A DNA stretch of 64,000 nucleotides. It comes from Dethiobacter alkaliphilus (GTDB lineage: Bacteria; Bacillota; Dethiobacteria; DTU022; UBA8154). The stretch's first letter is position 1. Each line of letters starts with the position of its first letter. This document shows, one piece after another, positions 18,114 to 42,381 of this stretch. The stretch spans positions 9,064 to 73,063 of the forward strand of contig JAENYV010000003.1 in assembly GCA_016841605.1 (NCBI GenBank), in the 5' to 3' direction. The notes below the pieces were generated by a model that had not been told where the DNA came from, did not search any database, and saw nothing but the letters and a program-made list of their open reading frames with translations. The position numbers and the translations under genes are program-made.

Positions 18114-18902
18114 ATGAGCAAAATGATTAGTTACAATCGCTTAAACTGTGACGCCCGTGATATCAAACAGGCAAAAGAACAACTAGTTTTGGCCAGCCGC
18201 ATACTTGCCAACGAGGAAATTCTGGATGGTCTCGGCCATATAAGTATCAGAAACCCTGAAAACCCTGATACTTTCTTGCAGAGCAGATCTCTTTCTCCCG
18301 AGTTTATTACCATGGACGATATTATGGAAATTGCTATGGACGGTACTGTTGTGGTCGGTATCGAAGGAAAAAAACCTTACGGTGAGCGCATACTGCACGG
18401 TGCTATCTTAGAAGCGCGTCCCGATTTAGGATGTGTATTCCATGGCCATCCCTTGGCACTTATTCCTTTCACCGTCTGCAAAGATATGCCCTTAAAACCC
18501 GTAATGAACTATGGTGCAATCTTCTATAACGGTTATAGTTACTATGATGACTCCGATGTTAGTAGCGGAACTATTATCGTAACTCCCGAAGAAGGTGCAC
18601 GCGTTGCCCGAGCAATGGGCGACAAATATGCTTGTCTGCTCCGTGGACACGGCGTGGTAACCGGTGCACAAAATATTCCTCAGCTGGTGCTTGACACAAT
18701 TCTTTTAACTAAAAACGCTGAAGTACAGCTGCGTATCGAAGCTACCGGTAAAGAGCCTAAGCTTACCACCGGTGAAGAAGGCAGGGCTTACAGAACAATT
18801 ATGCATGGTGACAACGCTTTGCTCCGCTGCTGGAACTATTATGTTGACCGAGCTAAAAAGGCTATGCCCGACATTCGTGATCTGCAGGGTTTAGGTATGT
18901 AA
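18114..18902 (+). CDS. class II aldolase/adducin-family protein
   Basis: LILASRILANEEILDGLGHISIR plus the GHPLALIPF His motif; AGGAGTGG RBS at 18114. Confidence 0.75.
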   Translation: MSKMISYNRLNCDARDIKQAKEQLVLASRILANEEILDGLGHISIRNPENPDTFLQSRSLSPEFITMDDIMEIAMDGTVVVGIEGKKPYGERILHGAILEARPDLGCVFHGHPLALIPFTVCKDMPLKPVMNYGAIFYNGYSYYDDSDVSSGTIIVTPEEGARVARAMGDKYACLLRGHGVVTGAQNIPQLVLDTILLTKNAEVQLRIEATGKEPKLTTGEEGRAYRTIMHGDNALLRCWNYYVDRAKKAMPDIRDLQGLGM

Positions 18903-18981
18903 TTTGATTCTAAAATAAATATTTATAGTACGGGAATGTATTTATGAATTTATTTTTTATCTTGTCCAAGGGAGGATATCT

Positions 18982-20853
18982 ATGAATAATTTTCAAAAAC
19001 AATTTTTAAATATTTTTACAAAAATAATTGCAGTTGGGTTTAGTTTATGGCAGTTATATACGTTAAGTTTTGGTAGGATAGACCCTGTTCTCTCCAGACG
19101 GCTTTTTGTTGTTTGGTTGCTTTTACTTATATACTTGCTTGAATTGAATAAGCCTCAAAAAAAATATTATACAGCAAATTTAGTTTTTAATTATGTAGGG
19201 ATTATTTCTTCAATTTTAATTGGTTGGTATTGTTTTGCTAATTTTGAACGATTGGCTACTCGCTGGGCGATGGTTAGTCCTGTAACAAATGCTGATATTT
19301 TGGTAGGGATAGTACTAATTTTATTAATTTTCATTGGAGTAAAACGATATGCAGGTTGGCCTCTTGTAGGAATAGGATTAGGTTTTATTTGTTATGGTTT
19401 TATTGGTAAATTTTTAGGTTTTAAGTATTTTCCACTTGCAAAAATTATTGATCAATTAACCCTTACTTTTTACGGAATTTATAGTACTCCCATTGGTGTT
19501 GCATCGACAATTGTTTTCTCTTTTGTTCTCTTTGGAACTTTTTTACGTAATGCCGGAGGAGGGGAATTTTTTGTTTCTTTAGCTAATCGACTTCTAGGCA
19601 AAAGTAGAGGAGGCCCTGCAAAAGTAGCTGTATTTGGTAGCCTTTTGATGGGATCTATATCCGGAAGCGCCAGCGCCAACGTTGTAACTACAGGAACTGT
19701 TACTATTCCATTGATGAAAAAAATTGGACTTCCGGCAGAATTTGCAGGAGCAGTTGAAGCAGTAGCATCTACCGGAGGCGCAATTATGCCTCCAGTCATG
19801 GGAAGTGCTGCTTTTATAATGTCGGAATTAACTGGAATTTCATATATAACAATTGTAGGTGCAGCTTTAATTCCTGCAATATTATTTTATATTGCCCTTT
19901 TTATTAGTATTGATCTTAAATCTGCAAAACTCGGTATAAAAGGCTCAAATATTATTGAAAAAATTCCTGCCATGGAGTTAATTATTGGGTGTGTTGTTTT
20001 TTTAACACCTTTAGTTATTATTTTCATTCTTCTTATAAAAGGTTTTTCACCGGCAAGAACCGGTGTAATTGCAACTGCAATTTTGATTATATTAAGCTGG
20101 ATAAGTAACAAAACACGATTAACCCCAATTAAAATACTAAAAAGCCTTGAAGAAACATCAAAAGGTATGCTTATGGTAATGTTAGCCTGTGGTGCGGCTG
20201 GAATAGTACTAGGTATGATTAGTATAACCGGCATAGCCAGCCATCTTATTGGTACCATGATGGTTACTTTCCACAGTTCAGTAATGCCTCTTTTAATAAT
20301 TACCATGATAATTAACATTATTTTAGGAATGGGAATGCCGAATTCAGCAACTTATATTCTTGTTGCTGCCCTGATGGCACCTGCTTTAATAAATTTAGGG
20401 ATACCGGTGCTTATAGCCCATTTGTTTATTATTTTCTTTTCATCAATGTCACATATCACACCGCCTGTTATGGTAGCTGGTTATGTTGCTTCAGCTTTAG
20501 CTGAAGCTGAGCCGATGAAATTAGGTTTAAATAACCTTCGTTTGGCATTTATTGCCTTTATTGTACCATACTTTATGGTTTATGAGCCTGCTCTTATAGG
20601 ACATGATCATTTTCTGCTCGTTATTCTAGCGTTTCTTTCCTCTTGTGTGGGTATTTATTTTATCGTTACATCGTTTGAGGGTTGGTTTGTTCATAATCAA
20701 CCTACGTTATATAGAATTATATGGATGATAAGTGGTTTACTTTTACTCTATCCCGGTTACCTTACGGATATCATAGGCCTTTTTATGGGTTCAATGCTTA
20801 TCTTGATTGTATTAAGAAAAGCAAGAACTATAGATTCAGTCCGTTTAAATTGA
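18982..20853 (+). CDS. TRAP transporter fused 4TM/12TM permease (TAXI-type)
   Basis: 623-aa polytopic protein; GGGAGG RBS; a TAXI receptor gene follows. Confidence 0.85.
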   Translation: MNNFQKQFLNIFTKIIAVGFSLWQLYTLSFGRIDPVLSRRLFVVWLLLLIYLLELNKPQKKYYTANLVFNYVGIISSILIGWYCFANFERLATRWAMVSPVTNADILVGIVLILLIFIGVKRYAGWPLVGIGLGFICYGFIGKFLGFKYFPLAKIIDQLTLTFYGIYSTPIGVASTIVFSFVLFGTFLRNAGGGEFFVSLANRLLGKSRGGPAKVAVFGSLLMGSISGSASANVVTTGTVTIPLMKKIGLPAEFAGAVEAVASTGGAIMPPVMGSAAFIMSELTGISYITIVGAALIPAILFYIALFISIDLKSAKLGIKGSNIIEKIPAMELIIGCVVFLTPLVIIFILLIKGFSPARTGVIATAILIILSWISNKTRLTPIKILKSLEETSKGMLMVMLACGAAGIVLGMISITGIASHLIGTMMVTFHSSVMPLLIITMIINIILGMGMPNSATYILVAALMAPALINLGIPVLIAHLFIIFFSSMSHITPPVMVAGYVASALAEAEPMKLGLNNLRLAFIAFIVPYFMVYEPALIGHDHFLLVILAFLSSCVGIYFIVTSFEGWFVHNQPTLYRIIWMISGLLLLYPGYLTDIIGLFMGSMLILIVLRKARTIDSVRLN

Positions 20854-20953
20854 ACAATTTATTAAAAGGAGATGGAAAAATGAGTTTAAAAACGCAATAA
20901 CTATTAATTTAAGTCCGTTTAAATTAAATAATTTTTTAAAAGGAGATGTAAAA

Positions 20954-22024
20954 ATGGGTTCAAAAAGGTATTGGTTAATTAGGTTATTATTTGTATTTCT
21001 TATTGGGTTTGTCTATATAGCAGGTTGTAGCCCCAATGAAAAGGATATTTCACAACAAGGTAGTTCCACCGAAAAGGATGCTTTACAGCAAGGTGAAGGA
21101 CAAGGTAACGAAAAGGATTTTACGCTGGAATTAACAATAGCTATGGCAAGTCCGGGAGGCGTATGGCAGGCAATATGTGAAGGTGCTGCTCAGGCAATCA
21201 GGCAGGAATATCCAGGGTCAAGGATCGAAGTAATTTCTGGAAGTATGGGGGGTAATGCAGTAAGTGTTCAGGAAAAAACTGTTAGCTTTGCTTTATCCCA
21301 TGCTCCAAATGCAAGGCTTGCTATAAACGGATCCCCTCCATACGATAGCAAAAATCCGGACATTATGGGACTTTCAGCAGTATATATTGGACCCCTTCAT
21401 TTTTTGGTACCCGTAGATAGTCCAATTTATTCTTTTAAAGATATTAAGGAAAATAAATATCCGGTAAAAATGTCAATAAATTCAAAAGGATCAACCGTAG
21501 AATTTCTTTCGGAAGCAGTTTTTAAACAAAATGGTATTACTATTGACGATATTAAAAGTTGGGGAGGAGAGATTTCGTACTTATCAACTGCAGACGGTTT
21601 TTCGTATCTTCGTGAGAAAGTTTACAATATGGGTACTCTTTGTTCATATTTACCAAGTACTCAAGTTTTAGAACTTTCTTCCGGTTTAGATATTAGATTA
21701 ATTTCTCTAGAAGAAGATACAATTGACAATATATGCAAAAATTATGGGACGGTAAGATCGGTGATTCCTGGAGGTGTTTATTCATTTCAAAACGAAGAAA
21801 CAATTACTGTTGGAAGCCCAAATATCTTTATAACTAACAAAGATATGCCTGATGAAGTTGCATATAAAATCGTTGAGGCATTGGATAAGCAGCGCGATTA
21901 TCTCGGTAATGTCCATGAAACTTTTAAAACTCTCACACTAGAAAAAATGTTTAAAGATATGGGTGACATTCCCGTACATCCTGGTGCGTTAAAATATTAT
22001 CAGGAACATGGGGTTGTTAACTAA
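20954..22024 (+). CDS. TAXI-family TRAP transporter solute receptor (lipoprotein)
   Basis: Lipobox IAGCSPNEKD; TAXI-like fold; AAGGAG RBS. Confidence 0.8.
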   Translation: MGSKRYWLIRLLFVFLIGFVYIAGCSPNEKDISQQGSSTEKDALQQGEGQGNEKDFTLELTIAMASPGGVWQAICEGAAQAIRQEYPGSRIEVISGSMGGNAVSVQEKTVSFALSHAPNARLAINGSPPYDSKNPDIMGLSAVYIGPLHFLVPVDSPIYSFKDIKENKYPVKMSINSKGSTVEFLSEAVFKQNGITIDDIKSWGGEISYLSTADGFSYLREKVYNMGTLCSYLPSTQVLELSSGLDIRLISLEEDTIDNICKNYGTVRSVIPGGVYSFQNEETITVGSPNIFITNKDMPDEVAYKIVEALDKQRDYLGNVHETFKTLTLEKMFKDMGDIPVHPGALKYYQEHGVVN

Positions 22025-22157
22025 TATAATGTAATTTTCTTGATAATGCGTCTAGTACTTTTGATGATGTAGTTGATCCGGTAGCTATTAGCCACAAGGC
22101 TGTTAAGAGATGATAAAGAACAAGTAAAGGGCATTATCAATGTTAAGGAGGTTTACG

Positions 22158-23609
22158 ATGGCTGAAAAAAGCTTAGTTACATATAAGGATCTTCGTGAGT
22201 TTCTGGAAATGGTTAAAGAAATCGGAGAACTAAAAGTAGTCGAAGGTGCTTCCTCGGAGGAAGATATAGGTATGGCTGCGGAACTTCTTCACAAGACTTC
22301 CGGCAGTCCCGCGGTACTGTTTGACAATATCCCCGGTTACCCTTCAGGATATAGAGTTTTAGTCAATGCTTTAAGAACTGAAGAAAGACTTGCTATTACA
22401 ATAGGGTTACCTCAGCATCTAAGTAAGCTTGAACTAAGTGAAGCTATGAACAGAAAATTTAAAGAAAATAAACCCATTCCACCGGAATATGTGGATGACG
22501 GGCCTATTTTAGAAAATGTGCATATAGGTGATGATGTAAACGTACTGGAATTTCCAGCTCCTTTTTGGCATGAATTTGACGGAGGCCGTTATATCGGAAC
22601 CGGAAGCTATGATATTACGATTGATCCAGATGAAAAATGGGTTAATTTAGGGACCTATCGGGTAATGGTTGATGACGAAAAACATGTATTCTTTTTTATT
22701 TCTCCCGGTAAACAAGGGCGTATCCACAGAGATAAATATTTTGCCGGAAAAGAGCCCTGCCCTGTAGCAGTGGTAGTCGGAGGTGACCCCCTGCTGTATC
22801 TTGCCGGATGTACCGAACTGCCATATGGTCTAAGCGAATATAATTGGGCGGGTGGAGTACGGGGAGAACCTTTTAAGGTAATAAAGGGCAAATTTACCGG
22901 CCTTCCTATTCCTGCTAATGCAGAGATCGTTTTAGAAGGTTTTGCTCACTATGATGACTTGAAGGAAGAGGGTCCTTTTGGAGAATGGACTGGATATTAT
23001 GCCAGTGGTTCACGTCGTGAACCCAGAATTGAAGTTAAGGCAATTTATCATCGCAATAATCCGATTATTTTAGGATGCCCTCCTAATAGGCCCCCTGATG
23101 AAATTGCCTTTTACCGTGCTTTTATGCGTTCTCCCTTACTTAAAGAAGAGATGGAAAAAGCAGGTGTCCCGGACATTAAAGCTGTTTGGGGTCATGAAGT
23201 CGGAAGCTCACGTTTGTTATTGGCAGTTGCCATAAAGCAGCGCTATCCGGGGCATGCAATGCAGGCCGGTCATATAGCTTCTCAATGTCATGTGGGGGCT
23301 TATTGTGGGCGCTATATAATTGTAGTGGATGAAGATGTGGATGTTACCGACCTTGATGAATTGATGTGGGCAGTGTGTACACGGTCAGATCCCGCTACTT
23401 CTATCGATATCATTAATCGGGCCTGGAGCACTCATCTCGATCCCCGTATTAGTCCTGAAGATAAGGAAAAGGGAAGACTGTGGAATTCCAGAGCAATAAT
23501 TGACGCAACTAGGCCTTACGACTGGAAAGATGATTTTCCTCGTGTTAATATCCCCAGTCCTGAGCGCAGAAAAAAAACTTTGGATAAGTGGGGATATCTC
23601 CTTAAGTAA
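22158..23609 (+). CDS. UbiD-family (prFMN-dependent) aromatic acid decarboxylase/carboxylase
   Basis: Typical UbiD N-terminus (YKDLREFLEMVKEIGEL) and conserved core; AAGGAGG RBS at 22158. Confidence 0.85.
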   Translation: MAEKSLVTYKDLREFLEMVKEIGELKVVEGASSEEDIGMAAELLHKTSGSPAVLFDNIPGYPSGYRVLVNALRTEERLAITIGLPQHLSKLELSEAMNRKFKENKPIPPEYVDDGPILENVHIGDDVNVLEFPAPFWHEFDGGRYIGTGSYDITIDPDEKWVNLGTYRVMVDDEKHVFFFISPGKQGRIHRDKYFAGKEPCPVAVVVGGDPLLYLAGCTELPYGLSEYNWAGGVRGEPFKVIKGKFTGLPIPANAEIVLEGFAHYDDLKEEGPFGEWTGYYASGSRREPRIEVKAIYHRNNPIILGCPPNRPPDEIAFYRAFMRSPLLKEEMEKAGVPDIKAVWGHEVGSSRLLLAVAIKQRYPGHAMQAGHIASQCHVGAYCGRYIIVVDEDVDVTDLDELMWAVCTRSDPATSIDIINRAWSTHLDPRISPEDKEKGRLWNSRAIIDATRPYDWKDDFPRVNIPSPERRKKTLDKWGYLLK

Positions 23610-23900: not shown

Positions 23901-24689
23901 CTAAGGCCTTTCAAATGATTTATCTAAAAATTCTCCACCCCCAAAATTAATTGATATTTTTTTTGCAGAATCAACTAAAATTGAAGCTATTTCTTTAATG
24001 CCGGCCTGCTTAATACGGTCGACCGGGCCAACAACTGATACAGAAGCTATCACATTACCTGAATATCCCCATATAGGTGCTGATACTCCTGCCCCCCCTA
24101 TCGTTCTTTCTTCAATACCAACTGCATATCCTTCCTTTCGAACAATTGCCAGTTCATCCTTTAAAGTATCTATATCAGTAAAGGTTTTGTTTTGTAGATT
24201 ATTTTTCTTTACAATAGCTTCGACTTTTTTTTCATCTATATATGCTAAAATAACCTTGCCTGAACTGCCGATATGTGCCGGTAAGGCTTGACCTATTTGT
24301 ATTGCGGGGCGTAACCCTTGAGGTCCATTAATTTTTTCAATACATATTTTAAATGAATCCGAAAGAACACTTAATAGAACAGTCTCCCCAGTTTTATAAA
24401 CAAGTTCTTGCATAAAAGGCAAAGCTACGGCACGTAATTCTAAAGAATTCCTAACAACATTACCCAGTTGGAAAATAACCATTCCTAAACTATAAGTTTC
24501 TCGGAAATTATTTTTTACTAGTAAACCTTCTTCTTCTAATGATTTAGCAATTCTGTGAACAGTACTTTTATGCAAACCAAGCATTTTACTAAGTTCAATT
24601 AAACTTAGTTCACTATTATCAAAACTAAAACACTTTAAAAGCTTTGCAGCCCTGTTAATTGCTCTAATTGTATAATCACCTTTAGCCAT
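23901..24689 (-). CDS. IclR-family transcriptional regulator
   Basis: N-terminal HTH (LSLIELSKMLGLHKSTVHRIAKSLEEEG) plus a C-terminal effector domain. Confidence 0.85.
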   Translation of the reverse strand: MAKGDYTIRAINRAAKLLKCFSFDNSELSLIELSKMLGLHKSTVHRIAKSLEEEGLLVKNNFRETYSLGMVIFQLGNVVRNSLELRAVALPFMQELVYKTGETVLLSVLSDSFKICIEKINGPQGLRPAIQIGQALPAHIGSSGKVILAYIDEKKVEAIVKKNNLQNKTFTDIDTLKDELAIVRKEGYAVGIEERTIGGAGVSAPIWGYSGNVIASVSVVGPVDRIKQAGIKEIASILVDSAKKISINFGGGEFLDKSFERP

Positions 24690-24956: not shown

Positions 24957-25637
24957 CTAATATTTGTGGGTTAAGATCTCGATTACCTTTTTAGTGCTAA
25001 CAACTGTCGCATATTTGGAATTCATGTCAAACAAATTGACTAAATGGGGTATTTCTGCCCGATCAAATACCCCGTCTTCCACTACAACTACCTCAAAACC
25101 ACTTGAAAATCCATCTGTTACTGTAGCTCTTACACACCCTGAAGTAGTACAACCTGTCACCAAAAGAGTATCAATTTTCTGACGGTACAGATAACTTCTC
25201 AGCGGCGTTTCAAAAAAAGCACTAGCCTTTGTCTTTTTTATAATTAATTCATCTTCTTGTGGAGCAATTTCATCAACTATTAAATTATATTGAGGGTCAT
25301 AGGCCGTTTGAGGACGTGTTGTAGTAGGTCCGAAATATTTTGCTTTACCACCTTGAGGAACATCAAGAGGAACAATAAATACAATGCCAATATCTTTTTC
25401 TCTACATACTTTTAGTAAAGCAGCTATATTAGTTATTTCATTTTCTACTGAACATGCCATTGGATGATCCGTTTGAATCTTTGCATTATTACTTTTTACT
25501 TGACGTTTTAGCACATCAATTATAAGTAATGCAATGTTACCTCCTAAACTTAATTCGCCTTTTACAAATCCGGCTTTTTTGTAAATAGCTCTTTCTTTCT
25601 CCGGTATAATTTCTTCCCACTTATGCACAATAATCAC
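24957..25637 (-). CDS. isochorismatase-family cysteine hydrolase (amidase-like)
   Basis: LLIIDV...K...CG(C)TTSGCVRAT catalytic triad context; GTG start likely. Confidence 0.65.
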   Translation of the reverse strand: MIIVHKWEEIIPEKERAIYKKAGFVKGELSLGGNIALLIIDVLKRQVKSNNAKIQTDHPMACSVENEITNIAALLKVCREKDIGIVFIVPLDVPQGGKAKYFGPTTTRPQTAYDPQYNLIVDEIAPQEDELIIKKTKASAFFETPLRSYLYRQKIDTLLVTGCTTSGCVRATVTDGFSSGFEVVVVEDGVFDRAEIPHLVNLFDMNSKYATVVSTKKVIEILTHKY

Positions 25638-25754: not shown

Positions 25755-27134
25755 TTAACCATAACGTCCAACATTACCCCTTGCTAATGATGTGAAGATG
25801 CCACAGATACAAAAGATAGTAAAAAGTAGAAAAGTAATTTTTATACTAAATAAAAAAAGGTGGGGGGATTGAGGTATTGTTGAAGTCTTTCCCATGACAA
25901 TGTTAAATATCAACATGACGATACCCATACTAAATAGTTGACCCATTTTTCGCATAGTAGAAAGTATTGCCGAAGCCACTCCAAAATATTTCTTTTCAAC
26001 AGAGTTCATAACTGCATTTGTATTAGGAGATACAAAAAGAGCAAAACCAAAGCCAATGACTAATAGGCTAAACACTACAAAAAACATAGATGTTTGTGCA
26101 TTTAAGAATATTAAAGGTACTAGTCCCACAGCTAAAACCGCCATACCGGCAGAAGATAAAACCCTTGGTTGAATTCTATCGGAAAGTTTCCCTGCCAGAG
26201 GTGAGAAAAAAACCATCACAATCGGCTGGGACATTAGAATCAAACCTGCAGTTTGAGGACTCAGGTCTTTAATATACTGGAGATAAAGACTAAGGAGAAA
26301 ACCTATGGCAAAGGTTGCGCTATAATTAATTAATGCTGCAAGATTAGAAAAAGCAAAAACCCTATTATTTATGAAAAGTTTCATATTTAAAACAGGAGTC
26401 TCAACCCTCATTTCCCACCTAATGAAAAATAATATACCCAGGATTCCTGCAAAAAACAAACAAATACCAAACAATTCCGGTATAAGGGTCAGACCATACA
26501 CTATTAATAGCAGCGAAATGCAATAAATTAGTAAACCAATGACATCAAGATTTTCTCCATCTGCTTCAATCCACTCTCCTTTTAATTGACAAAAGACAAG
26601 ATAAAATGATAGCAATCCAAACGGAACAATAAAAATAAATATACTTCTCCACCCAAAGTTTTGGGTTAGCACACCCCCCAGCACAGGCCCGAGAGAAAGC
26701 CCCAGGTAAACGATAGTAATGTTTATTCCCAAAGCCCAACCTCTCTCACCTGGTGAAAAAACTGAAGTCAGTATAGCAACACCTGTCGAAAAGATCATCG
26801 CACTTCCGACTCCTTGGAAAAATCTAAATAAAAGAAGAGGGAGGACAGATGTAGAGATCGCACAAAGAAAAGAAAAGAAGGTAAAAATTAAAATACCATA
26901 AATAAAAATTAATTTTCTCCCATAAATATCCGAAATTTTTCCAAATGGAACAAGAAATATTACTGCAGGTAAAATAAATGAAGTTGTGATCCAGCCTAAT
27001 AAAATTGCATCTATTAAAAATTCTTCTCCGATTGAAGGAAGGGCAATATTAATGGATGAACTCATGAAAGGTGTTAAAAAAGAAGCAAACGCTGCAACAA
27101 TTAAAGCAACTTTTTTATTTTTATCTATTAACAT
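25755..27134 (-). CDS. MFS transporter (14-TM, DHA2-like)
   Basis: 459-aa polytopic protein with MFS signature loops. Confidence 0.8.
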
Positions 27135-27591: not shown

Positions 27592-27667
27592 TATTTATCA
27601 TCCTCACTCTGACTCAGTCGTAAAGGATATCCCGCTATCCGGATATTTATAATGACAGCGCGACACC

Positions 27668-34902: not shown

Positions 34903-34962
34903 CCCCAAAGTTTTACCACTCCTATCTCTTTTCATTAATTAAGACGTAGCCCTGGCGGGATA

Positions 34963-35475
34963 TTAAGCAAGCGTTTGATAAAGATGCCTCCTATTTTTAA
35001 TCCAGTTTATTAAGCCTCCGCTTTGAAATATCTCCAGAAGTATTGGTGGGGTTGGGTCAGCTTGAAATAGCTCACCAGTCTCAAGATTCTCTATAATACC
35101 TTTTAAAATATCTACTTTAATTCGATCGCCTTTTTTAAATTTGTTTCTGATATTCCGGCATTGAAGAACCGGCAAACCAATATTCCAGGTATTTCTGTAA
35201 AATAACATCCCTGCACTTTCACAGACGACAGCGCCTACTCCGACCTGTTTCAAGATTTCGCCGGCAGGCCTTCCCGAAGAAGCACCAAAATTTTTTCCTG
35301 TAATAATTACATCACCCGGTTGAACTTTTTTAGCAAAATCCGGCTCGTAAAATTCTAATACATGCTGTAAAACTTTTTCTCGCCGTTCCTCTTCCCCTGA
35401 CATTAACATGCTTTCTGCATTAACGTTATCCCCTAAAAGCCATACAAATCCTTTTACTAATAATTGTGGCTCCAA
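34963..35475 (-). CDS. second aconitase-family small subunit (LeuD-like paralog)
   Basis: 170-aa swivel-domain protein. Confidence 0.75.
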   Translation of the reverse strand: MEPQLLVKGFVWLLGDNVNAESMLMSGEEERREKVLQHVLEFYEPDFAKKVQPGDVIITGKNFGASSGRPAGEILKQVGVGAVVCESAGMLFYRNTWNIGLPVLQCRNIRNKFKKGDRIKVDILKGIIENLETGELFQADPTPPILLEIFQSGGLINWIKNRRHLYQTLA

Positions 35476-35525
35476 AATTTGTCCTCCTTATTTCTTTGTA
35501 TTAATAAATATTTAATCTTCCAACA

Positions 35526-35687: not shown

Positions 35688-36146
35688 CTACAATAAAATA
35701 CCAGGATATAATTTTAGGCTTAATACATTAAATAAGAAAGTGTAAATTGCCAACATAAAAATTATAGTAATCAAAAGCGAAATGTGTAACTTTTGCTTTG
35801 ATTTAAAAAGGAGAAACAGAAAAAGAAAAGTCCCTCCTCCCCATAAGACTCCAATCATACCAACCAAAATAACCAGCCCTAAAACCCAAAACCAAATCAG
35901 GAGTTCATCCCCGTGGGCAACCCACCAAGAAAATTTACTGCTTGTTTTCTCTAAGCCCTTTTGCTCAGCCTCTTTATCATGTTTAAATTCAACAAATATA
36001 TTAACAGCAGCTAAAATTACGGCAGGTATTCCAATTACAAGGGGCATAAACGCTGCAAATTTGTTAAATCCAAAAGCAAGGAGCACCATTATAATCAGAA
36101 TAAGAAGTAAAACTATGGCAAATATATTTTTCTCCTTACCCATCAT
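35688..36146 (-). CDS. tctB: tripartite tricarboxylate transporter TctB-family small membrane subunit
   Basis: 152-aa, 4-TM protein immediately downstream of tctA. Confidence 0.7.
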   Translation of the reverse strand: MMGKEKNIFAIVLLLILIIMVLLAFGFNKFAAFMPLVIGIPAVILAAVNIFVEFKHDKEAEQKGLEKTSSKFSWWVAHGDELLIWFWVLGLVILVGMIGVLWGGGTFLFLFLLFKSKQKLHISLLITIIFMLAIYTFLFNVLSLKLYPGILL

Positions 36147-37624
36147 ATCACTCCTTTTTTGTGCGCCATTTTACTTTTTATAACAGGTCCGAAAAAGATA
36201 AGGAGTAAAAGCATTGTTAATATTAGTACAACAGGACGTTTCATCATCTCAATACCGTAAAGGTTGTACGATAACCACATATTTCGTTCAATAATTACTC
36301 CCAGAATAAATCCTAGAATTAGAGCCGGGCGTGAATAACCCAATTTTTTCATTTCATATCCTATAAAACCAAAAATAAGAAGCGTAACTATATCGCCAAA
36401 GCTTCTACTGGCATTAAAAGCTCCGATCATTGTTATTATTAAAACAATAGGTGCCAAGATAGTCACGTTAACCGTAGTTATACGCGCAAGATACTTTACA
36501 AACGGAAGAATTAAAGCTGCGCCAAAAATGTTGGAAATAACCAGCATTGCGATAATTAATATTACGGAAGATAGTTGCGGACCTAACAAATCCCGTCCTG
36601 GAATTAATCCGATAATTGTTAGAGCGCCAAGAAGTACAGCCATACCCGCACTTCCAGGAATTCCAAAAGCCAATGTGGGCACTAATGCCCCCCCTTCTTT
36701 AGCGTTGTTGGCACTCTCAGGGCCCAATACCCCTTGAACTACTCCAGTTCCCATATTGTTTTTATTTCCCGAAGATTGCCCTGCATACCCATAAGCTATA
36801 AAGTTGGCGATATCTCCTCCAAGACCGGGAATAATCCCAATAACAGCTCCAATAACAGCGCATTTTACAACCAGCCACCAATTTTTAACAACGTCCAGAA
36901 GACCGGTTATGGGACTATCCTCTATTTTTACTCTTCCTTTAGCTATTGCTCCTCCCGTTATACATAAATGCACCATCTCAGATACAGCAAAAAGCCCCAG
37001 GAGAACAGGTAACATTTTTAACCCATCCCACAGATAAAGAGAATTAAAGGTATAACGCATTGCCCCGGTAACCCAATCTTCCCCGACGAGAGATATTAAA
37101 ATACCGAACATCCCGGCAATAGCTCCTTTAATAGGATTACTGCCGGAGAGGACTGAAATCATTGATACTCCTGTTAGAGCTAAAAAAAGCATTTCTGCCG
37201 GCCCAAAACTCATTACTATAGGTCTAACTACAGGTATCAGCATTAAAAGGACAATGGCTCCAATAATCCCTCCCAAGGTCGAAGAACCTAATGCCACTCC
37301 AATAGCCCTGCCTGCCTGGCCCTTTTGGGACATTGGATAGCCGTCAAATACTGTCGCAGCATTTACAGGACTACCCGGAACTCCAAACAAAATAGCAGAT
37401 ATTGAACCTCCGGTTGCCACAACGGCATGGGCACTAATTAATAAAGCAATAGCAGCTTCTGTTGAAAGATTGAAAACAAAGGGAAGCAACATTACAAGGA
37501 CAAAAACACCGCCTATTCCGGGGATAAAGCCCATAACCACCCCAAACAGCACACCTATAATCATATATATAATCTGAGGCGGTGTTAATGCACTTACCAG
37601 GCTAGTACCTAACATTTCAAGCAT
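36143..37624 (-). CDS. tctA: tripartite tricarboxylate transporter TctA-family permease
   Basis: ~490-aa TctA architecture; AGGAGTGA RBS at ATG 37622-37624. Confidence 0.85.
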   Translation of the reverse strand: MLEMLGTSLVSALTPPQIIYMIIGVLFGVVMGFIPGIGGVFVLVMLLPFVFNLSTEAAIALLISAHAVVATGGSISAILFGVPGSPVNAATVFDGYPMSQKGQAGRAIGVALGSSTLGGIIGAIVLLMLIPVVRPIVMSFGPAEMLFLALTGVSMISVLSGSNPIKGAIAGMFGILISLVGEDWVTGAMRYTFNSLYLWDGLKMLPVLLGLFAVSEMVHLCITGGAIAKGRVKIEDSPITGLLDVVKNWWLVVKCAVIGAVIGIIPGLGGDIANFIAYGYAGQSSGNKNNMGTGVVQGVLGPESANNAKEGGALVPTLAFGIPGSAGMAVLLGALTIIGLIPGRDLLGPQLSSVILIIAMLVISNIFGAALILPFVKYLARITTVNVTILAPIVLIITMIGAFNASRSFGDIVTLLIFGFIGYEMKKLGYSRPALILGFILGVIIERNMWLSYNLYGIEMMKRPVVLILTMLLLLIFFGPVIKSKMAHKKGVI

Positions 37625-37733
37625 TCTATCACTCCTAACTTTAGGGCTTGGCAAAGTGTGGGGCCGTTATTTATTGCATGTTTAGTACATTTTACGGCCC
37701 CTCCTTTGCTTCAATTGTAAGCTCTAAAAAATA

Positions 37734-38801
37734 TCATTTTGCCTCAAGAGCTTTAATTAACTCTTCAGGAAGCTGGAATGATGTATCAATTAATTTTTTT
37801 AATTCATCCCCTGCAAGAGGATTAATCGGCATATCAGCTTTTGCAGCCTTGTCTAATAGCTCAGGATTGTTCAAAACCTTCATAAAAGCATCACTTAAAA
37901 ATTCTACCCGCTCTTGCGGCACCCCGGGAGACGTGGCAATTGAGCGACCGGCTGCCGCGATAGATGATATGGCATTAATAATCTGCTTCGCTTCGTTAGA
38001 CTTTGCAAACGGTTTCGCATTAGGTACTCCAGGTAGTTCCGGCACTTCTTCCTCATTAATTACTACTATGGGTTTAAGGTCTCCATTGGCAATAGCAGAC
38101 AATTTACTGCTCATGGAGCCCATTGTTGCATCTACATCTCCCCGCATTACGGCGAGGTCAGTCCCTGAAGATCCTTCAAATCCGGTAACTATTTTGGATT
38201 GCAGTTCAAAAGCAGCGATCATGGCCACCGGATTAACATAAGTACTACCTGTCGTCGATGTGGAAGATATAGTCGTATTAGCTGTTAAAAAGTCTTCAAA
38301 AGCTTGAATCTTGCCTTCAGGAGAAACAACTAAAACCTGTGGATCCGAAGCTATACGTGCTACCCATTCAACATTTTTAAGGTCAAATTCCACACCTTCT
38401 TCATTAAGAACCTGAGAAGGGATAGTACCTATTAAATTAATAATGCAAATTGTTAAACCGTCCGGGTCTGAAGTATAAAACTTGTTAGTACCAATAATGC
38501 TGCCACCGCCGGGTATATTTTCCACAACTACACTTTTGGCTCCAAGTTCAGCTTCTAAGTAAGGCGCTACAAGACGAGCATAAGTATCAAATCCGCCCCC
38601 AGGATTAAAAGGAACTATAAAGGTAACTGTTTTTCCTTTATAGAAATCTGCTGCTGTCTCCTTAGCAGGTTCCTGCGTTTGATTTGCAGGTGCCGGTTGG
38701 TCTGCAGGTTTACTGCACCCAATAGGTAAAAACGCTATAATTATTAATAAGACGACCATTAGAAAACAAGTATTCCTAATCTTTTTACTATACCTAAACA
38801 T
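37734..38801 (-). CDS. tctC: TctC/Bug-family substrate-binding lipoprotein of the TTT transporter
   Basis: Lipobox LPIGCSKP; Bug-family fold. Confidence 0.8.
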   Translation of the reverse strand: MFRYSKKIRNTCFLMVVLLIIIAFLPIGCSKPADQPAPANQTQEPAKETAADFYKGKTVTFIVPFNPGGGFDTYARLVAPYLEAELGAKSVVVENIPGGGSIIGTNKFYTSDPDGLTICIINLIGTIPSQVLNEEGVEFDLKNVEWVARIASDPQVLVVSPEGKIQAFEDFLTANTTISSTSTTGSTYVNPVAMIAAFELQSKIVTGFEGSSGTDLAVMRGDVDATMGSMSSKLSAIANGDLKPIVVINEEEVPELPGVPNAKPFAKSNEAKQIINAISSIAAAGRSIATSPGVPQERVEFLSDAFMKVLNNPELLDKAAKADMPINPLAGDELKKLIDTSFQLPEELIKALEAK

Positions 38802-38903: not shown

Positions 38904-40361
38904 TTAAATCCCCATGGACGCATATAGGCTACCACCTCCTGTTGTAAGGTTGGAAATATCTTCTTGCGAAATATATTCGTTTATGGGGAATTCTTCTATT
39001 ACTCTTTCCTCCGGCCTACCAACTTCCGGAAACGGCTTTCCGACTGGTTTTGTTGCATCAATAATAAACCCGCCAACTTGCAGATCACTCATAGAAGAAG
39101 GGTCATGACGATTAGCATCCAAGTTTTTTACCACCTGTACCTGATCCGTATTAGCATCGACCCTTGTCCCTACTGCCCATAAAACATCATTTAAGTCAAA
39201 TGGATTAATATCTATATCAACAATTATTACATTTTTAAGAAAATCACCTACTACGGATAAAGCATAGTGAGCTAAACGCTGAGTCTCGCCGGGATGATCG
39301 GGGGCAAATTGAATAACACATGTATACGGCTGTGCCCGATGTGCCACTTTAACCCCAGGGAACTTAGTTCTCAATTCATTGGTTAAGGTAATAGCCATAC
39401 TTATCTCACCATGTAATGTGTTGTGCCCAACCCAATTATTTTCACATATAGGATTATCACTATAATTAAAAGCAGTCGGAGTGAAAACAGGCTCCAGAGT
39501 TTGGGGTGAATAGTAACGCATAAAATCAATCCAGGGACCATTAAAATCACGCTCTTCCAGGCTCAAATAGCCTTCAACAACCATTTCCGCATCTGCAGGA
39601 ATTAAAAAATCATCTCCTAAAGTTGCTGAAGCAGTAAGGCGTAACGGCTCATTCAATAATCCACCTGCCACTGCATATTCATCAATGTTATAACCTGGTC
39701 GTACAGCACCGGCCAGCATAAGCAGCGGGTGGGCTCCAAATATCCAGGCAACAGGCATTTCTTTATAACCTAAAGCTCGGTACTTCTTCATATATGACCA
39801 AAGATGCCTATACTGGATCCTCGGTGCTGATCTTTGTGGCCCATGCACATGATGCCTGTGCCAGGAAAGGTTATAACGGCCGTTTTCCGGGTCCTTACCG
39901 ATAGCCAAACCGCAAATCCATCCCGGTTGGGCATCTTTGCTATCTTTCCTATATAGAGGAAGATCAAACAAGTTAACATCCTTACCTGTTAAAACCGTTG
40001 CCTTTACTTGGGCTTTACCGGGATCGACTTGAACAGGATTTATCGGACCTGAAAGGCGGTTGCTAAGTTCCATAATAATACCTTCAGCCGTCCATTTCTC
40101 TTTTGGTAATTCGCAAGCAATAGCCATGCGTGCATAGGAGCCCTCCTGCTGCCACTGTGCGCTACCAGGCCAACGCTTTCCACTTATTGTCTCAATGTTT
40201 TCAAATATTACTGCAGGAAACTTGCCGATTTTTTTTAGTTGCCAAACAATAGAACTACATTGGTTTTTATGGGGTTTTAAAGGTCCTTTGGCAATGCGAA
40301 TTATCTGCTCAGGATAATTATTTTCTAAATCACTTAAGAACGTTTTCGCCGACTTAACCAT
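38904..40361 (-). CDS. UbiD-family decarboxylase/carboxylase (paralog 2)
   Basis: UbiD core; 485 aa. Confidence 0.85.
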   Translation of the reverse strand: MVKSAKTFLSDLENNYPEQIIRIAKGPLKPHKNQCSSIVWQLKKIGKFPAVIFENIETISGKRWPGSAQWQQEGSYARMAIACELPKEKWTAEGIIMELSNRLSGPINPVQVDPGKAQVKATVLTGKDVNLFDLPLYRKDSKDAQPGWICGLAIGKDPENGRYNLSWHRHHVHGPQRSAPRIQYRHLWSYMKKYRALGYKEMPVAWIFGAHPLLMLAGAVRPGYNIDEYAVAGGLLNEPLRLTASATLGDDFLIPADAEMVVEGYLSLEERDFNGPWIDFMRYYSPQTLEPVFTPTAFNYSDNPICENNWVGHNTLHGEISMAITLTNELRTKFPGVKVAHRAQPYTCVIQFAPDHPGETQRLAHYALSVVGDFLKNVIIVDIDINPFDLNDVLWAVGTRVDANTDQVQVVKNLDANRHDPSSMSDLQVGGFIIDATKPVGKPFPEVGRPEERVIEEFPINEYISQEDISNLTTGGGSLYASMGI

Positions 40362-40431
40362 ATTATTTCAATCCTCCTTCACCTAAGCCTTAAAAATTAA
40401 TACTCAGGTTTGCTGCATTACTACTTCCATT

Positions 40432-42051
40432 CTATTTATCATCCTCACTCTGTCCCGATTGCATAAGGCGTTCTGCTGTTTTCCGATATTCTCCATTAAT
40501 AGCCCAAGTGGCTTCTTCCCTGTTTTCTTCGGTCCAGAGGCCCAATTCATAACCGAACCAGGGAGAACGTGGCATTAATTTGGGAAGACCAATTTTTTCC
40601 CACTTAGCCTGGGCTGCCTCCATATACTCCTTTGCCGGCAATGCCACGGGCGGATAAGGCCATTTCCTGGTTGCGTCTATTAAAATTGAAGAACAGCCGC
40701 GAGGTCCTGTACTACCCATAGGATAGAACCTCTCTATTAAAGAAGAAGAGGGGGGGGCTGAAGAAGGATCCAGGGCGGCAAAGCGACCTTCCATAATTTT
40801 GACGTCAAGGTGGGGTTGGTGCCGAAAAGCCAGTGCCCACATTACGGATTCCAAATCCCGGGGATCAATATCATCATCTACAGCTATGGCCACCTTGGGA
40901 AACCCGCCGGCCCTTGCCAATGATGCATTTAGAGCCTGCCAGGCTTCAGAGTGCGTAGGCCTAGGTGTCCATGTTTTGTGTATCTGAATAACACAGAGTT
41001 GCCAACCACCGGCTGCCTGATGGAAACCTACAGCCCGAACATTAGCCAAGCCGCAATCCCGTCTTAGAAACTTTAACATGCTAGACTCTTCACCGATTGA
41101 CCGAATCATGCTTGATTCACTTGGCGGCATCTGGCTAATGAAAGCATGATAGATGGGATCCTTCCTATGAGTTATACATTTGACTTTAAAAACCTGCTTA
41201 TAATCCCTTTCGGCAATATATCCGGTATACTCTCCAAAAGGAGCTTCAAGTTCTTTATAATCGGTAAGTACTTCACCTTCAATGACAATTTCGGCATAAG
41301 CCGGCACGAACAAATCCATCGTTTGACATTTAACGACTTCCAGAGGCTTGCCGTTAATAGCCCCGGATACTGCCAGTTCATCTACTCCGTACGGGACTTT
41401 TGTAACAGCAGTCATGGCAACTGAAGGTGGTCCCCCAATTACGATGGCTGCCGGCATGGGTTCTCGCATTTCCCGGTATTTTTGCCAATGAGCAGTAATA
41501 TGATTATGCCGCGTGGAAAGCCCTGTCTTCAGTTGTCCCTTCAACATTGCCCTGTAAGTTCCAACGTTTTGAATACCGGTTTCCGGATCTTTCGTATGCC
41601 AGGATCCGGCAGTTATATAGGGCGCAGGGTCAAAACCAGGTGTTGATATGGGAATAGGAAATTCTTCTAGCCCACCGTGCTCCAATAAACCGTCCCCTAG
41701 ATGTATCTCTTCCTGTACAGGACCTGAAGATACTATTTGCGGTTGCAATGGATTAGTTAATGCTTTCTCCCACTTGTCCTCAATTTCATTTGGCTGACAT
41801 TGCATTCCTAATGCATAGACTTCACGTGAAGCCCCAATAACTGCTACAGCTACCGAGCCTTTGTAACGTTCTCCTTTAGCTCCGGTTATATTTGAAAATA
41901 AAAACCCGCTTCGTTGATTTTCCGGAAGACCGCGGTACTGCCAGCGAACAAGCGGCATAAGCTCAGTATCCTTGCTCGTCTCATCTGATATTTCTCTCAG
42001 TAAACCCTTTTCTTTCAACACTTCCAGATAATCCCTTAAATCTTTGTACAT
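40432..42051 (-). CDS. UbiD-family decarboxylase/carboxylase (paralog 3)
   Basis: UbiD N-terminus (YKDLRDYLEVLKEKGLL); start at the ATG with a GGAAGGTGA RBS. Confidence 0.85.
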   Translation of the reverse strand: MYKDLRDYLEVLKEKGLLREISDETSKDTELMPLVRWQYRGLPENQRSGFLFSNITGAKGERYKGSVAVAVIGASREVYALGMQCQPNEIEDKWEKALTNPLQPQIVSSGPVQEEIHLGDGLLEHGGLEEFPIPISTPGFDPAPYITAGSWHTKDPETGIQNVGTYRAMLKGQLKTGLSTRHNHITAHWQKYREMREPMPAAIVIGGPPSVAMTAVTKVPYGVDELAVSGAINGKPLEVVKCQTMDLFVPAYAEIVIEGEVLTDYKELEAPFGEYTGYIAERDYKQVFKVKCITHRKDPIYHAFISQMPPSESSMIRSIGEESSMLKFLRRDCGLANVRAVGFHQAAGGWQLCVIQIHKTWTPRPTHSEAWQALNASLARAGGFPKVAIAVDDDIDPRDLESVMWALAFRHQPHLDVKIMEGRFAALDPSSAPPSSSLIERFYPMGSTGPRGCSSILIDATRKWPYPPVALPAKEYMEAAQAKWEKIGLPKLMPRSPWFGYELGLWTEENREEATWAINGEYRKTAERLMQSGQSEDDK

Positions 42052-42076
42052 CGTAAATATCACCTTCCTTTTACTT

Positions 42077-42244
42077 TTAAGCCACAGGAAAATTAGCGCT
42101 AATTATCTTGCCTTCTTTGCGAGAGAAGCGGGCCATGCACATTGGACAAAACTGTAAAAAATCAGCTCCCTGATCATAAATCATTTTGTGTACATTATAA
42201 ATATGGTTGCACTTAGGGCACTCGATATAAAATTCCTGAGCCAT
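42077..42244 (-). CDS. 55-aa zinc-ribbon protein (C-P-x-C ... C-P-x-C), possible small subunit of the UbiD pair
   Basis: MAQEFYIECPKCNHIYNVHKMIYDQGADFLQFCPMCMARFSRKEGKIISANFPVA; AAGGAGG RBS; first gene of the UbiD-UbiD-tctCAB unit; absent from the ORF track. Confidence 0.5.
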   Translation of the reverse strand: MAQEFYIECPKCNHIYNVHKMIYDQGADFLQFCPMCMARFSRKEGKIISANFPVA

Positions 42245-42381
42245 TTTAAACCTCCTTTCTGGAAATTAATTAAAAATTATAAAATAAATAGTTACCCATG
42301 GACAATAATAAAATTTAATTACGAAAAAGACTTCTTTAATATGCCCGAGGCAATCCGTAAATATATTTTTTAATAAGAACA

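Follow-up and report, generated by a model that had tools for sequence, protein, structure and literature searches.

What is understood of how aromatic and heteroaromatic acids are broken down anaerobically comes almost wholly from pathways that run via coenzyme A (CoA) thioesters or from fermentations initiated by molybdenum (Mo) hydroxylases. The fermentation of nicotinate by Eubacterium barkeri is CoA-free: after reduction of a pyridone by an Fe-S flavoenzyme, the cyclic enamide is opened by a hydrolase, and DmdAB, a LeuCD-type dimethylmaleate hydratase, hydrates a substituted maleate. The gene cluster for this fermentation was reportedly described by Alhapel et al. in 2006. In the reductive catabolism of pyrimidines and orotate, a dihydropyrimidine or dihydroorotate dehydrogenase is followed by a cyclic amidohydrolase. 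Here, we analyzed a stretch of 64,000 nucleotides from Dethiobacter alkaliphilus (assembly GCA_016841605.1, contig JAENYV010000003.1, positions 9,064 to 73,063 of the forward strand), referred to below as the window. It carries a gene cluster of about 24 kb that encodes UbiD-type decarboxylases, LeuCD-type hydro-lyases, a pair of M24-fold proteins, a flavoprotein, and carboxylate transporters. We consider the chances about even that the genes of this cluster make up a single catabolic system, independent of O2 and of CoA thioesters, whose substrate is a di- or tricarboxylic acid with a ring, most likely an N-heterocycle resembling pyridine, pyridone, or pyrimidine.

By analogy, the E. barkeri fermentation is the closest known system in terms of logic, as the cluster would likewise combine ring reduction, enamide hydrolysis, and a LeuCD-type hydratase. 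The window differs in that it lacks a Mo nicotinate dehydrogenase, an amidohydrolase-type enamidase, a B12 mutase, methylitaconate isomerase, and dimethylmalate lyase; instead, it contains UbiD decarboxylases, an M24 heteropair, and two LeuCD pairs. The cluster also resembles reductive pyrimidine and orotate catabolism, in that a predicted ene-reduction would precede hydrolytic opening and in that related clusters of Firmicutes use a reductase of the dihydroorotate dehydrogenase type with Fer4 motifs. In contrast to pyrimidine catabolism, the candidate hydrolase has an M24 fold rather than being an amidohydrolase, and the LeuCD steps and polycarboxylate transporters have no counterpart there. 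Judged by sequence, each protein of the cluster falls in a known superfamily but outside every characterized family considered, and the cluster contains two enzyme subfamilies that look new.

Conservation of the gene cluster

An earlier note on this DNA had proposed that the genes form a functionally linked, uncharacterized catabolic unit, and comparison with other genomes sustains this proposal. A contig from a rock-porewater metagenome (L004) carries the same core genes in a single co-directional operon: IclR, LeuD-LeuC-LeuD-LeuC, M24-M24, a flavin adenine dinucleotide (FAD) flavoprotein, a Fer2_3 (2Fe-2S) protein, UbiD, TctC-TctA-TctB, and an open reading frame (ORF) of 56 amino acids (aa). 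Fourteen genes of the window are syntenic in L004 at 38-81% aa identity; the values are 74% and 72% for LeuC1 and LeuD1, 75% and 66% for LeuC2 and LeuD2, 81% for the UbiD, an orthologue of UbiD#2, and 58% for the IclR orthologue that heads the operon. A second co-directional set, found in a genome of the Thermodesulfobacteriota (L088; L009 is the same locus), comprises LeuC-LeuD, a cupin, TctA-TctB-TctC, UbiD, FAD, Fer2_3, and M24-M24. Most of the fourteen genes are syntenic here as well. Its UbiD is an orthologue of UbiD#1 (45% identity) with the canonical motif. TctABC is syntenic in L004, L088, and a further locus, L090, and L048 and L057 likewise combine LeuCD, UbiD, and the M24 pair. Based on gene order, the core of the cluster is a functionally linked catabolic unit and no chance assembly, and its synteny in unrelated organisms is the decisive evidence. 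By the same comparison, the cluster is conserved across several bacterial phyla.

The cluster spans 18072-42244 and consists of a plus-strand block of four genes and a minus-strand run in which 17 genes all point the same way and no gap exceeds 267 bp. These two divergent blocks are linked by context, since genes resembling UbiD#1 and UbiD#3 share one operon in a Dehalococcoidia genome (L001, 52% and 62% identity) and in L048, and since genes resembling Ald2, the aldolase-fold protein of the plus-strand block, adjoin M24 pairs in L067, L070, L079, and L082. Alternatively, the locus could be a mosaic of adjacent, independent units, each with its own substrate: TRAP/UbiD/decarboxylase, UbiD/tripartite tricarboxylate transporter (TTT), LeuCD/M24/flavoprotein, and efflux/amidase. 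Such modules do recombine elsewhere: HyuAB/PrpD accompany the M24 pair, ABC transporters accompany UbiD pairs, and Mo enzymes accompany UbiD#2. In the window, the plus-strand block is a separate transcript beside its own histidine kinase and response regulator, the isochorismatase-like and MFS genes are not conserved, and the gene order is permuted relative to L004. However, L004 and L088 represent different lineages, and each keeps LeuCD, M24, FAD/Fer2, UbiD, and TctABC in one co-directional operon; the combinations in L001, L048, and L057 and the four loci with Ald2-like genes by M24 pairs also argue against a mosaic. We consider a mosaic improbable for the locus as a whole and partly true, in that it holds for the peripheral genes.

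These peripheral genes are the isochorismatase-like gene, the DHA2-type MFS gene, and a 37-aa ORF, all of which had been listed as part of the cluster. None has a counterpart in L004 or L088, and none could be assigned to the pathway; judged from this comparison, we treated them as lineage-specific or spurious. The isochorismatase-like protein had only weak matches to RutB and BiuH, and its Asp/Lys/Cys triad was read by eye. The 37-aa ORF, described earlier as coupled to the M24 genes, does exist. Its coupling is not conserved, as the orthologous gap between M24b and M24a in L004 is only 30 nt, and we rejected it as a conserved coupled gene on this basis.

An exact 20-nt repeat, TATTTATCATCCTCACTCTG, occurs at 27592-27611, directly upstream of the start of the 2Fe-2S gene, and at 40433-40452, where UbiD#3 ends with it (final codons and stop) shortly before UbiD#2. 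The repeat may be the footprint of a rearrangement in which the gene order was permuted and UbiD#3 was inserted, because in L004 the 2Fe-2S gene runs straight into UbiD#2.

Gene inventory

Annotation covered ORFs of at least 120 aa in the window, minus those overlapping annotated genes out of frame and a 125-aa ORF at 63530-63907. All genes previously listed for the ~24-kb cluster were found with their domains and coordinates (Table 1). The position formerly given as its beginning, 18114, proved to be an internal ATG of the first ORF. In the order of transcription, the minus-strand run encodes the zinc ribbon, UbiD#3, UbiD#2, TctC-A-B, LeuD1/C1, LeuD2/C2, M24b, M24a, the FAD protein, the 2Fe-2S protein, the MFS transporter, the isochorismatase-like protein, and IclR.

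Table 1. Features of the cluster and one possibly associated gene group, with the basis of each assignment.
Feature	Position	Strand	Basis or remark
Ald2, class II aldolase/adducin-fold protein, probably a non-oxidative decarboxylase	18072-18902	+	Pfam Aldolase_II
Fused TRAP permease, DctQM type	18982-20853	+	TIGR02123, 538 bits, above cut-off
TAXI-family TRAP solute-binding protein	20954-22024	+	TIGR02122, 156 bits, above cut-off
UbiD#1, canonical decarboxylase of the prenylated flavin mononucleotide (prFMN) type	22140-23609	+	three UbiD Pfam domains
IclR-family regulator	23901-24689	-	Pfam
Isochorismatase-like hydrolase, peripheral	24957-25637	-	Pfam
DHA2-type MFS transporter, peripheral	25755-27134	-	domain/family models
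2Fe-2S protein, 111 aa	27256-27591	-	Pfam Fer2_3
SdhA/FrdA/NadB-family FAD flavoprotein, non-canonical	27668-29317	-	FAD_binding_2 and Succ_DH_flav_C
M24a, degenerate pita-bread-fold partner	29335-30459	-	weak Pfam M24 match, E = 9e-11
37-aa ORF	30446-30559	-	present as ORF
M24b, prolidase-fold subunit with remodelled site	30625-31725	-	alignment to prolidase; AlphaFold model
LeuC2	31852-33126	-	aconitase-family [4Fe-4S] hydro-lyase pair, with LeuD2
LeuD2	33129-33638	-	with LeuC2
LeuC1	33631-34935	-	second aconitase-family pair, with LeuD1
LeuD1	34963-35475	-	with LeuC1
TctB	35688-36146	-	TTT component, Pfam
TctA	36143-37654	-	TTT component, Pfam
TctC	37734-38801	-	TTT component, Pfam
UbiD#2, distinct clade	38904-40361	-	UbiD domains; RYNLSWHR and NGPWxD motifs
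UbiD#3, canonical UbiD	40432-42063	-	UbiD domains; EAPFGE-type motif
CPxC...CPxC zinc-ribbon protein, 55 aa	42077-42244	-	proposed small subunit of UbiD#2
Aldehyde:ferredoxin oxidoreductase (AOR)-family protein and 4Fe-4S protein	46914-49419	+	Pfam; possibly associated, weak evidence

No UbiX-type flavoprotein, CoA ligase, or CoA transferase was found among the annotated ORFs, in agreement with the absence of these genes reported before. The term island, used in the earlier note, is apt as a description only, as the window contains no tRNA gene and its annotated ORFs include no integrase or transposase; the window also has no flanking repeats of note. We thus rejected a mobile genomic island. 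The G+C content is uneven, ranging from 34 to 49%. Promoter and terminator scans gave counts at or below the shuffled expectation and were therefore not used to define operons. No riboswitch was found near the cluster using Rfam.

The M24 pair and its genomic neighborhood

A one-genome-per-species scan using an M24b alignment yielded 80 loci, selected by M24b similarity alone; the genome scan with a single M24b query returned nothing. M24a adjoins M24b in 74 of the 80 loci, which makes the pair the most conserved element of the cluster, a feature that had previously been overlooked. The M24a family is fast-evolving, with 208 representatives out of 1.84 billion at E ≤ 1e-10.

The active sites of these proteins differ markedly from those of characterized M24 enzymes. 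The metal ligands of the Pyrococcus prolidase, D209/D220/H284/E313/E327, align with E221/Q234/H302/H329/G343 of M24b. All 26 homologues compared, the most distant at 37% identity, share these residues without exception, together with Y291, C292, P294, P295, M297, and R300 in a four-residue insertion. In M24a, all five ligands are gone, the positions being occupied by Ile/Ser/Gly/Arg/Gly. The AlphaFold (AF2) model of M24b had a mean predicted local distance difference test (pLDDT) score of 92.9 and a template modelling (TM) score of 0.83 to prolidase, and superposed on prolidases, DoeA, and creatinase at TM scores of 0.78-0.86 (to query length). The fold of M24b is conserved and the chemistry is not, and the model and fold search did not narrow its function. 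M24b scored 69.5 bits for DoeA, as compared to a cut-off of 613, and 46 bits for creatinase (1CHM).

Prolidase, creatinase, and ectoine hydrolase share the two-domain fold with M24b, and all cleave C-N bonds in carboxylate-bearing substrates. Unlike these M24B enzymes, M24b has replaced the di-metal ligands, M24a has lost them, and the two occur as an obligate gene pair rather than a homodimer. Based on the replaced ligands and missed equivalog cut-offs, we rejected prolidase, creatinase, and DoeA as identities of the M24 proteins. Their earlier description as ectoine-hydrolase-like does not stand, since the active sites resemble neither ectoine hydrolase nor prolidase and only the fold is common. 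We propose from these features that M24b is a hydrolase of a C-N ring bond or an amide, and that M24a and M24b probably form a heteromer of one catalytic and one structural subunit. In a metagenomic protein of 558 aa (P0165), the annotated domains are Creatinase_N, Peptidase_M24, and Aconitase_C (LeuD). It is possibly an M24b-LeuD-type fusion, which would imply physical coupling, or a gene-calling artefact.

Of the 80 species-genome loci, about 20 had LeuC/D, 10 had the FAD protein, and 9 each had Fer2 and UbiD. A control set of 80 loci selected by UbiD similarity contained none with LeuC and one with a weak M24 match. This set came from a metagenome scan using a UbiD#2 alignment, recovered mostly distant UbiDs, and was used only as a control and for the zinc-ribbon coupling described below. 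To tabulate neighbor families, all ORFs of the 80 loci, L001-L007, L088, L089, and the window were clustered and labelled using Pfam and NCBIfam. The families were an NMT1-type ABC binding protein (24 loci), LeuC and LeuD, usually as two pairs (23), caprolactamase-like HyuB and HyuA (21 and 15, respectively), the FAD flavoprotein (17), TctC (16), UbiD (15), MmgE/PrpD (13), Amidohydro_2 (12), and the 2Fe-2S protein (11). Decarboxylases are represented in these neighborhoods by UbiD or Amidohydro_2. Further neighbors were OCD/mu-crystallin, amidase, Amidohydro_1, Rieske oxygenases, and Mo-hydroxylases of the xanthine dehydrogenase type. The HyuAB, amidase, Amidohydro_1/_2, OCD/mu-crystallin, and Mo-hydroxylase neighbors are typical of the catabolism of N-heterocycles and lactams.

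In some related clusters, unrelated enzymes occupy equivalent places, and two such replacements give hints of the chemistry. Three Firmicute clusters (L011, L016, and L036) encode a protein similar to dihydroorotate/dihydropyrimidine dehydrogenase, with two Fer4 (4Fe-4S) motifs, instead of the FAD/Fer2 proteins. This alternative reductase, whose gene lies directly upstream of LeuC, had escaped notice before. FAD- and dihydroorotate-dehydrogenase-type reductases both act on C=C bonds conjugated to a carboxylate or amide. Similarly, MmgE/PrpD takes the place of LeuCD by the M24 pair in alphaproteobacterial and other non-delta loci, and both dehydratase types act on 2-hydroxy-polycarboxylates. 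The transporters of the related clusters are all carboxylate systems, namely TTT, DctPQM, TAXI-TRAP (also in L011, L016, and L036), and DASS/CitMHS, which indicates that the substrate is an anionic di- or tricarboxylate.

The carriers of the module are genomes of Thermodesulfobacteriota, other Deltaproteobacteria, Bacillota, Cryosericota, and Binatia from groundwater, sediment, peat, and gut. Organisms with related modules include Lachnospiraceae bacterium ZAX-1 (L016), Robertmurraya sp. 2P01SA (L042), and 'Candidatus Cryosericum terrychapinii' strain SMC7 (L012). Chloroflexota carry isolated elements (UbiD#2, UbiD#3, M24, and FAD_binding_2 genes). In the Chloroflexi genome GCA_016210495 (L003), a 55% homologue of UbiD#3 lies among two 424-aa M24 genes and four FAD_binding_2 genes, three of the latter with Succ_DH_flav_C; a small 4Fe-4S ferredoxin, luciferase-like oxidoreductases, and many ABC binding proteins are also present. 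The association of UbiD, M24, and flavoprotein thus also exists with other subfamily members. In L008 and L010, a bicupin and an EutA-like (reactivase-type ATPase) gene lie between the TctC and TctA genes.

The UbiD decarboxylases, the zinc ribbon, and Ald2

UbiD#1 and UbiD#3 have the canonical Asn...Arg and EGPFGE/EAPFGE motifs. The nearest solved relative of UbiD#1 is phenazine-1-carboxylate decarboxylase PhdA (7PDA, 371 bits), which acts on an N-heteroaromatic carboxylate (PMC10850782). The two are far from orthologous and differ in genomic context. The true start of UbiD#1 is likely 22158, as supported by a repeat of a ribosome-binding site (RBS) plus ATGGCT. UbiD#3 belongs to a large family (6057 matches at E ≤ 1e-30) and is extended by about 60 aa at its C terminus; with the database start, the protein is 539 aa long. 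In L001 its homologues adjoin UbiD#1-like genes, and in L003 they lie next to M24 and FAD_binding_2 genes.

UbiD#2 falls in a distinct clade that comprises about 90 sequence clusters and in which RYNLSWHR and NGPWxD are invariant. It keeps the Asn, the Arg, and the second acid (Asp); the first Glu is replaced by Asn throughout the clade. The nearest solved relative of UbiD#2 and UbiD#3 is HmfF (6H6V and 6H6X), which removes the carboxyl alpha to a ring heteroatom, and members of the UbiD#2 clade are named 'FDCA decarboxylase 1' by JGI. This raises the alternative of a furan pathway, in which UbiD#2 and UbiD#3 would be HmfF-type 2,5-furandicarboxylate decarboxylases and the remaining genes would degrade furoate. 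The HmfF scores are only 156 and 173 bits, however, and UbiD#2 has NGPWID where HmfF has EGPFGE, a difference that makes the JGI label unsafe. Furoyl-CoA synthetase, Mo-dependent furoyl-CoA dehydrogenase, HmfG/UbiX, and other hmf genes are absent from the annotated ORFs of the window, and opening of the furoate ring would yield no LeuCD substrate. We consider the hmf furan pathway highly improbable, and rejected it on the motif difference.

The cluster was also said not to be a known phthalate, benzoyl-CoA, or phenylphosphate cluster, and the scores uphold this. For phenylphosphate carboxylase, no UbiD scored above 290 bits in the beta-subunit model (cut-off 469) or above 196 bits in the alpha-subunit model (cut-off 565). 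Phthaloyl-CoA decarboxylase (Pcd) was among the weakest matches of UbiD#1 and UbiD#3 to UbiDs in the PDB (56-77 bits), and was not among the PDB matches of UbiD#2 at E ≤ 1e-10. We rejected the phthalate and phenylphosphate pathways based on these scores, with the lack of a CoA ligase or transferase noted above.

The 55-aa zinc ribbon encoded in the cluster, whose pairing with UbiD#2 had been overlooked, is 67-73% identical in L004, L090, L091, and L092 and 50-69% in L093 and L101. Its residues C9/C12/C33/C36 are invariant. The protein is encoded beside or near a UbiD#2-clade gene in seven of eight clade loci; it was not found in the eighth, the short (2,844-bp) locus L094. It occurs in none of the set's loci with a distant UbiD (26-34% identical to UbiD#2). 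Zinc-ribbon accessory subunits are known from UbiD decarboxylases of aromatic acids: VdcD has two CXXC motifs, is required for the activity of VdcC, and contacts the catalytic-motif loops (PMC8379154). The combination of UbiD#2 and the 55-aa protein resembles the vanillate/4-hydroxybenzoate decarboxylase VdcCD in this respect, and we propose by analogy that the zinc ribbon is a small subunit of UbiD#2. There are also differences. Sequence similarity of the ribbon to VdcD was not detectable, so the relation is one of analogy and not of membership. UbiD#1, #2, and #3 scored 272, 200, and 230 bits, respectively, in the VdcC-equivalog model NF041204, as compared to a cut-off of 650; the motif of UbiD#2 is N...D rather than E...E; and there is no adjacent VdcB/UbiX gene.

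UbiD#2-clade genes occur with a Mo-hydroxylase and a NicX-like gene in L092, with a Mo oxidoreductase and AOR in L090, and with a gene similar to maleate isomerase/arylmalonate decarboxylase in L091. The NicX-like and maleate-isomerase-like genes adjoin genes of this clade rather than M24 pairs.

Ald2 had been described as a class II aldolase. Its best match in the PDB was 2Z7B (Mlr6791), at 109 bits, as compared to 70 bits for fuculose-1-phosphate aldolase. We take 2Z7B to be 3-hydroxy-2-methylpyridine-4,5-dicarboxylate decarboxylase. In NCBIfam, Ald2 scored 81 bits for 3,4-dihydroxyphthalate decarboxylase, below the cut-off of 200. The best matches, Mlr6791 and PhtC, both remove one carboxyl from a hydroxylated aromatic ortho-dicarboxylate. 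Based on these matches, Ald2 is less likely to be an aldolase than a decarboxylase, probably one whose substrate is a pyridine dicarboxylate or a hydroxylated aromatic dicarboxylate.

The flavoprotein, the LeuCD pairs, and the transporters

Relative to FrdA of Wolinella succinogenes, the flavoprotein has replaced His43, the ligand of covalent FAD, by Gly, the substrate His257 by Ala, Glu270 by Ser, and His369 by Leu, while Arg301 and Arg404 are kept. It missed every NCBIfam equivalog cut-off. The replacement of both His, the Glu, and the covalent-FAD His argues against a fumarate reductase, as which the protein had been classed, and equally against a succinate dehydrogenase or L-aspartate oxidase; for this reason we rejected the idea that it is a genuine member of the fumarate reductases or L-aspartate oxidases. 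The protein probably still binds a carboxylate, and is a probable ene-reductase judging from its residues. Its 111-aa 2Fe-2S partner corresponds to only the N-terminal 2Fe-2S domain of SdhB. The two genes are adjacent in L004, L088, and nine genome loci.

The LeuC proteins scored 505 and 417 bits in NF001614 (cut-off 385), and the LeuD proteins 158 and 116 bits in TIGR02087 (cut-off 109), thus passing these models. Both pairs fell short of the equivalogs, with 419 and 346 bits for LEU2 against 611 and 120 and 119 bits for leud against 246. Three Cys ligands for a [4Fe-4S] cluster could be read in the LeuC sequences, and LeuD1 has a divergent substrate loop. By these scores, the LeuCD pairs are small heterodimeric members of the aconitase/IPMI superfamily and not 3-isopropylmalate isomerase. 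A reverse 2-oxoacid elongation pathway was rejected in the absence of LeuA- or LeuB-type genes. Among the TTT components, TctA (402 bits) and TctC (66 bits) scored above the cut-offs and TctB just below (27.1 against 29.1 bits). The best PDB match of TctC was the terephthalate-binding TphC (7NDR, 63 bits). In the plus-strand transporter, a 58-nt tandem duplication (20835-20892 and 20909-20966, 88% identity) covers the RBS and start codon of the TAXI gene, so that the TRAP permease gene ends in another site that looks like a start.

The main rival explanation is that the cluster serves an aliphatic tricarboxylate such as tricarballylate, trans-aconitate, or itaconate. In such a system, TctABC would import the acid, the flavoprotein would interconvert tricarballylate and aconitate as TcuA does, a UbiD would interconvert aconitate with itaconate and CO2 in an Fdc1-type reaction, the LeuCD pairs would be aconitases, and the M24 pair would be an isomerase or accessory. 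The TTT, DctPQM, and DASS transporters and the aconitase-family and PrpD enzymes do all act on citrate-like acids, the flavoprotein retains both carboxylate-binding Arg of the fumarate reductases, and UbiD enzymes, as is known for Fdc1, decarboxylate alpha,beta-unsaturated acids. Such a system would nevertheless leave unexplained the caprolactamase-like, amidase, amidohydrolase, OCD/mu-crystallin, and Mo-hydroxylase neighbors of the M24 pair, as well as the alternative reductase of the dihydroorotate/dihydropyrimidine dehydrogenase type. The nearest solved relatives of the UbiDs act on heteroaromatic acids, and the VdcD-like partner of UbiD#2 is of a kind typical of aromatic-acid enzymes. The top 25 NCBIfam matches of the flavoprotein did not include TcuA, and we found no literature linking UbiD with aconitate. 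We consider an aliphatic substrate unlikely.

Remainder of the window

Directly upstream of the plus-strand block, and divergent from it, lie genes for a regulator of the GntR/FCD type, a histidine kinase with a GAF domain, and the LuxR-type response regulator of the latter (14497-17838, minus strand). GntR/FCD regulators also head related clusters of the DctPQM type. About 5 kb past the cluster, the AOR-family gene, an overlapping 4Fe-4S gene, and moeA occupy 46914-50862 on the plus strand. AOR-family genes adjoin related clusters in L090, L026, L031, and L035, at only about 30% identity to the window protein, so that a link is no more than possible. The remaining genes comprise an ars-type operon, ABC and MFS transporters, regulators, the AOR/Fer4/MoeA group, and housekeeping genes. 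The arsenic-resistance-like group (2866-8181, minus strand) encodes two ArsP-type permeases, an SBF/ACR3-like carrier, an arsenate reductase of the low-molecular-weight phosphatase type, and ArsR. A T-box leader at 11783-12037 (minus strand; 93.2 bits, threshold 93) precedes an operon for an ABC binding protein, permease, and ATPase (8799-11722), which suggests tRNA-sensed control of an amino-acid-type importer. T-box leaders are typical of Bacillota, as are Cu_amine_oxidN1 and LonC-type domains, all of which occur in the window.

Discussion

The pathway that we propose for the cyclic polycarboxylate is derived in all its steps from sequence and gene context. The acid would be taken up via TctABC and TAXI-TRAP, and surplus ring carboxyls would be removed by up to four decarboxylases: UbiD#1, UbiD#3, UbiD#2 with the zinc ribbon, and Ald2. 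The FAD flavoprotein would then reduce a ring C=C bond conjugated to a carboxylate or amide, using electrons delivered via its 2Fe-2S partner, and the M24a/M24b heteromer would open the ring by C-N hydrolysis or deamidate it. Finally, the two LeuCD-type [4Fe-4S] enzymes would hydrate or isomerize a substituted maleate- or aconitate-like open-chain acid to a malate-, citrate-, or isocitrate-like acid that would enter central metabolism. The IclR protein would regulate the system, with the isochorismatase and DHA2 MFS genes as lineage-specific additions. The earlier note had suggested the same succession of uptake, decarboxylation, reduction, ring hydrolysis, and hydration, which fits the comparative data. 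The aldol cleavage with which it ended is without evidence, given that Ald2 is more likely a decarboxylase.

The nearest solved relatives, PhdA for UbiD#1, HmfF for UbiD#2 and UbiD#3, a pyridine-dicarboxylate decarboxylase for Ald2, and TphC for TctC, act on aromatic or heteroaromatic carboxylates. On chemical grounds, rings with carboxyls para to the heteroatom or vicinal to each other would open to an aconitate- or maleate-type acid. Fitting skeletons would include isonicotinate/citrazinate, pyridine-2,4- or -3,4-dicarboxylate, and 2-pyrone-4,6-dicarboxylate, although we place little weight on any specific substrate. More tentatively, the cluster may represent an undescribed anaerobic, CoA-free route for heteroaromatic polycarboxylates that depends on two new types of enzyme, an M24 'pseudo-prolidase' heteromer whose remodelled metal site would open the reduced ring and an Asn/Asp-motif UbiD/zinc-ribbon decarboxylase, and that would pass ring carbon straight to aconitase-like enzymes. 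Candidate substrates of such a route are pyridine di- or tricarboxylates and pyridone or pyrone dicarboxylates from lignin or spores.

Several observations weigh against a heterocyclic polycarboxylate system. None of the proteins of the cluster attains an NCBIfam equivalog cut-off. The usual substrates of LeuCD and PrpD are aliphatic hydroxy-acids, so that only the context speaks for a cyclic starting compound. Anaerobic pyridine pathways known so far activate the ring with a Mo-hydroxylase, and the window has none. Similarly, the three UbiD enzymes need prFMN, and there is no UbiX in the window. The remodelled site of M24b could catalyze a non-hydrolytic reaction. Two loci of Deltaproteobacteria (Syntrophales; L008 and L010) contain LeuCD and M24 genes with neither reductase. 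The plus-strand block is a separate transcription unit beside its own two-component system, and is not found in L004. Lastly, targeted full-text literature searches did not find this combination of genes described, which is absence of evidence only.

If the proposed system is real, it would represent a different strategy for the anaerobic breakdown of such acids, in which decarboxylases using prFMN act together with an ene-reductase linked to ferredoxin, an M24 hydrolase of a new kind, and enzymes of the aconitase type. Three large protein subfamilies that now lack annotation would thereby gain functions: the M24a/M24b pair, the UbiD#2/zinc-ribbon clade, currently mislabelled as FDCA decarboxylase, and the truncated SdhAB-like reductase. 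The UbiD enzymes might find use as reversible carboxylation catalysts for heteroaromatic acids. The module is widespread, is at present mis-annotated, and would be testable in cultured carriers.

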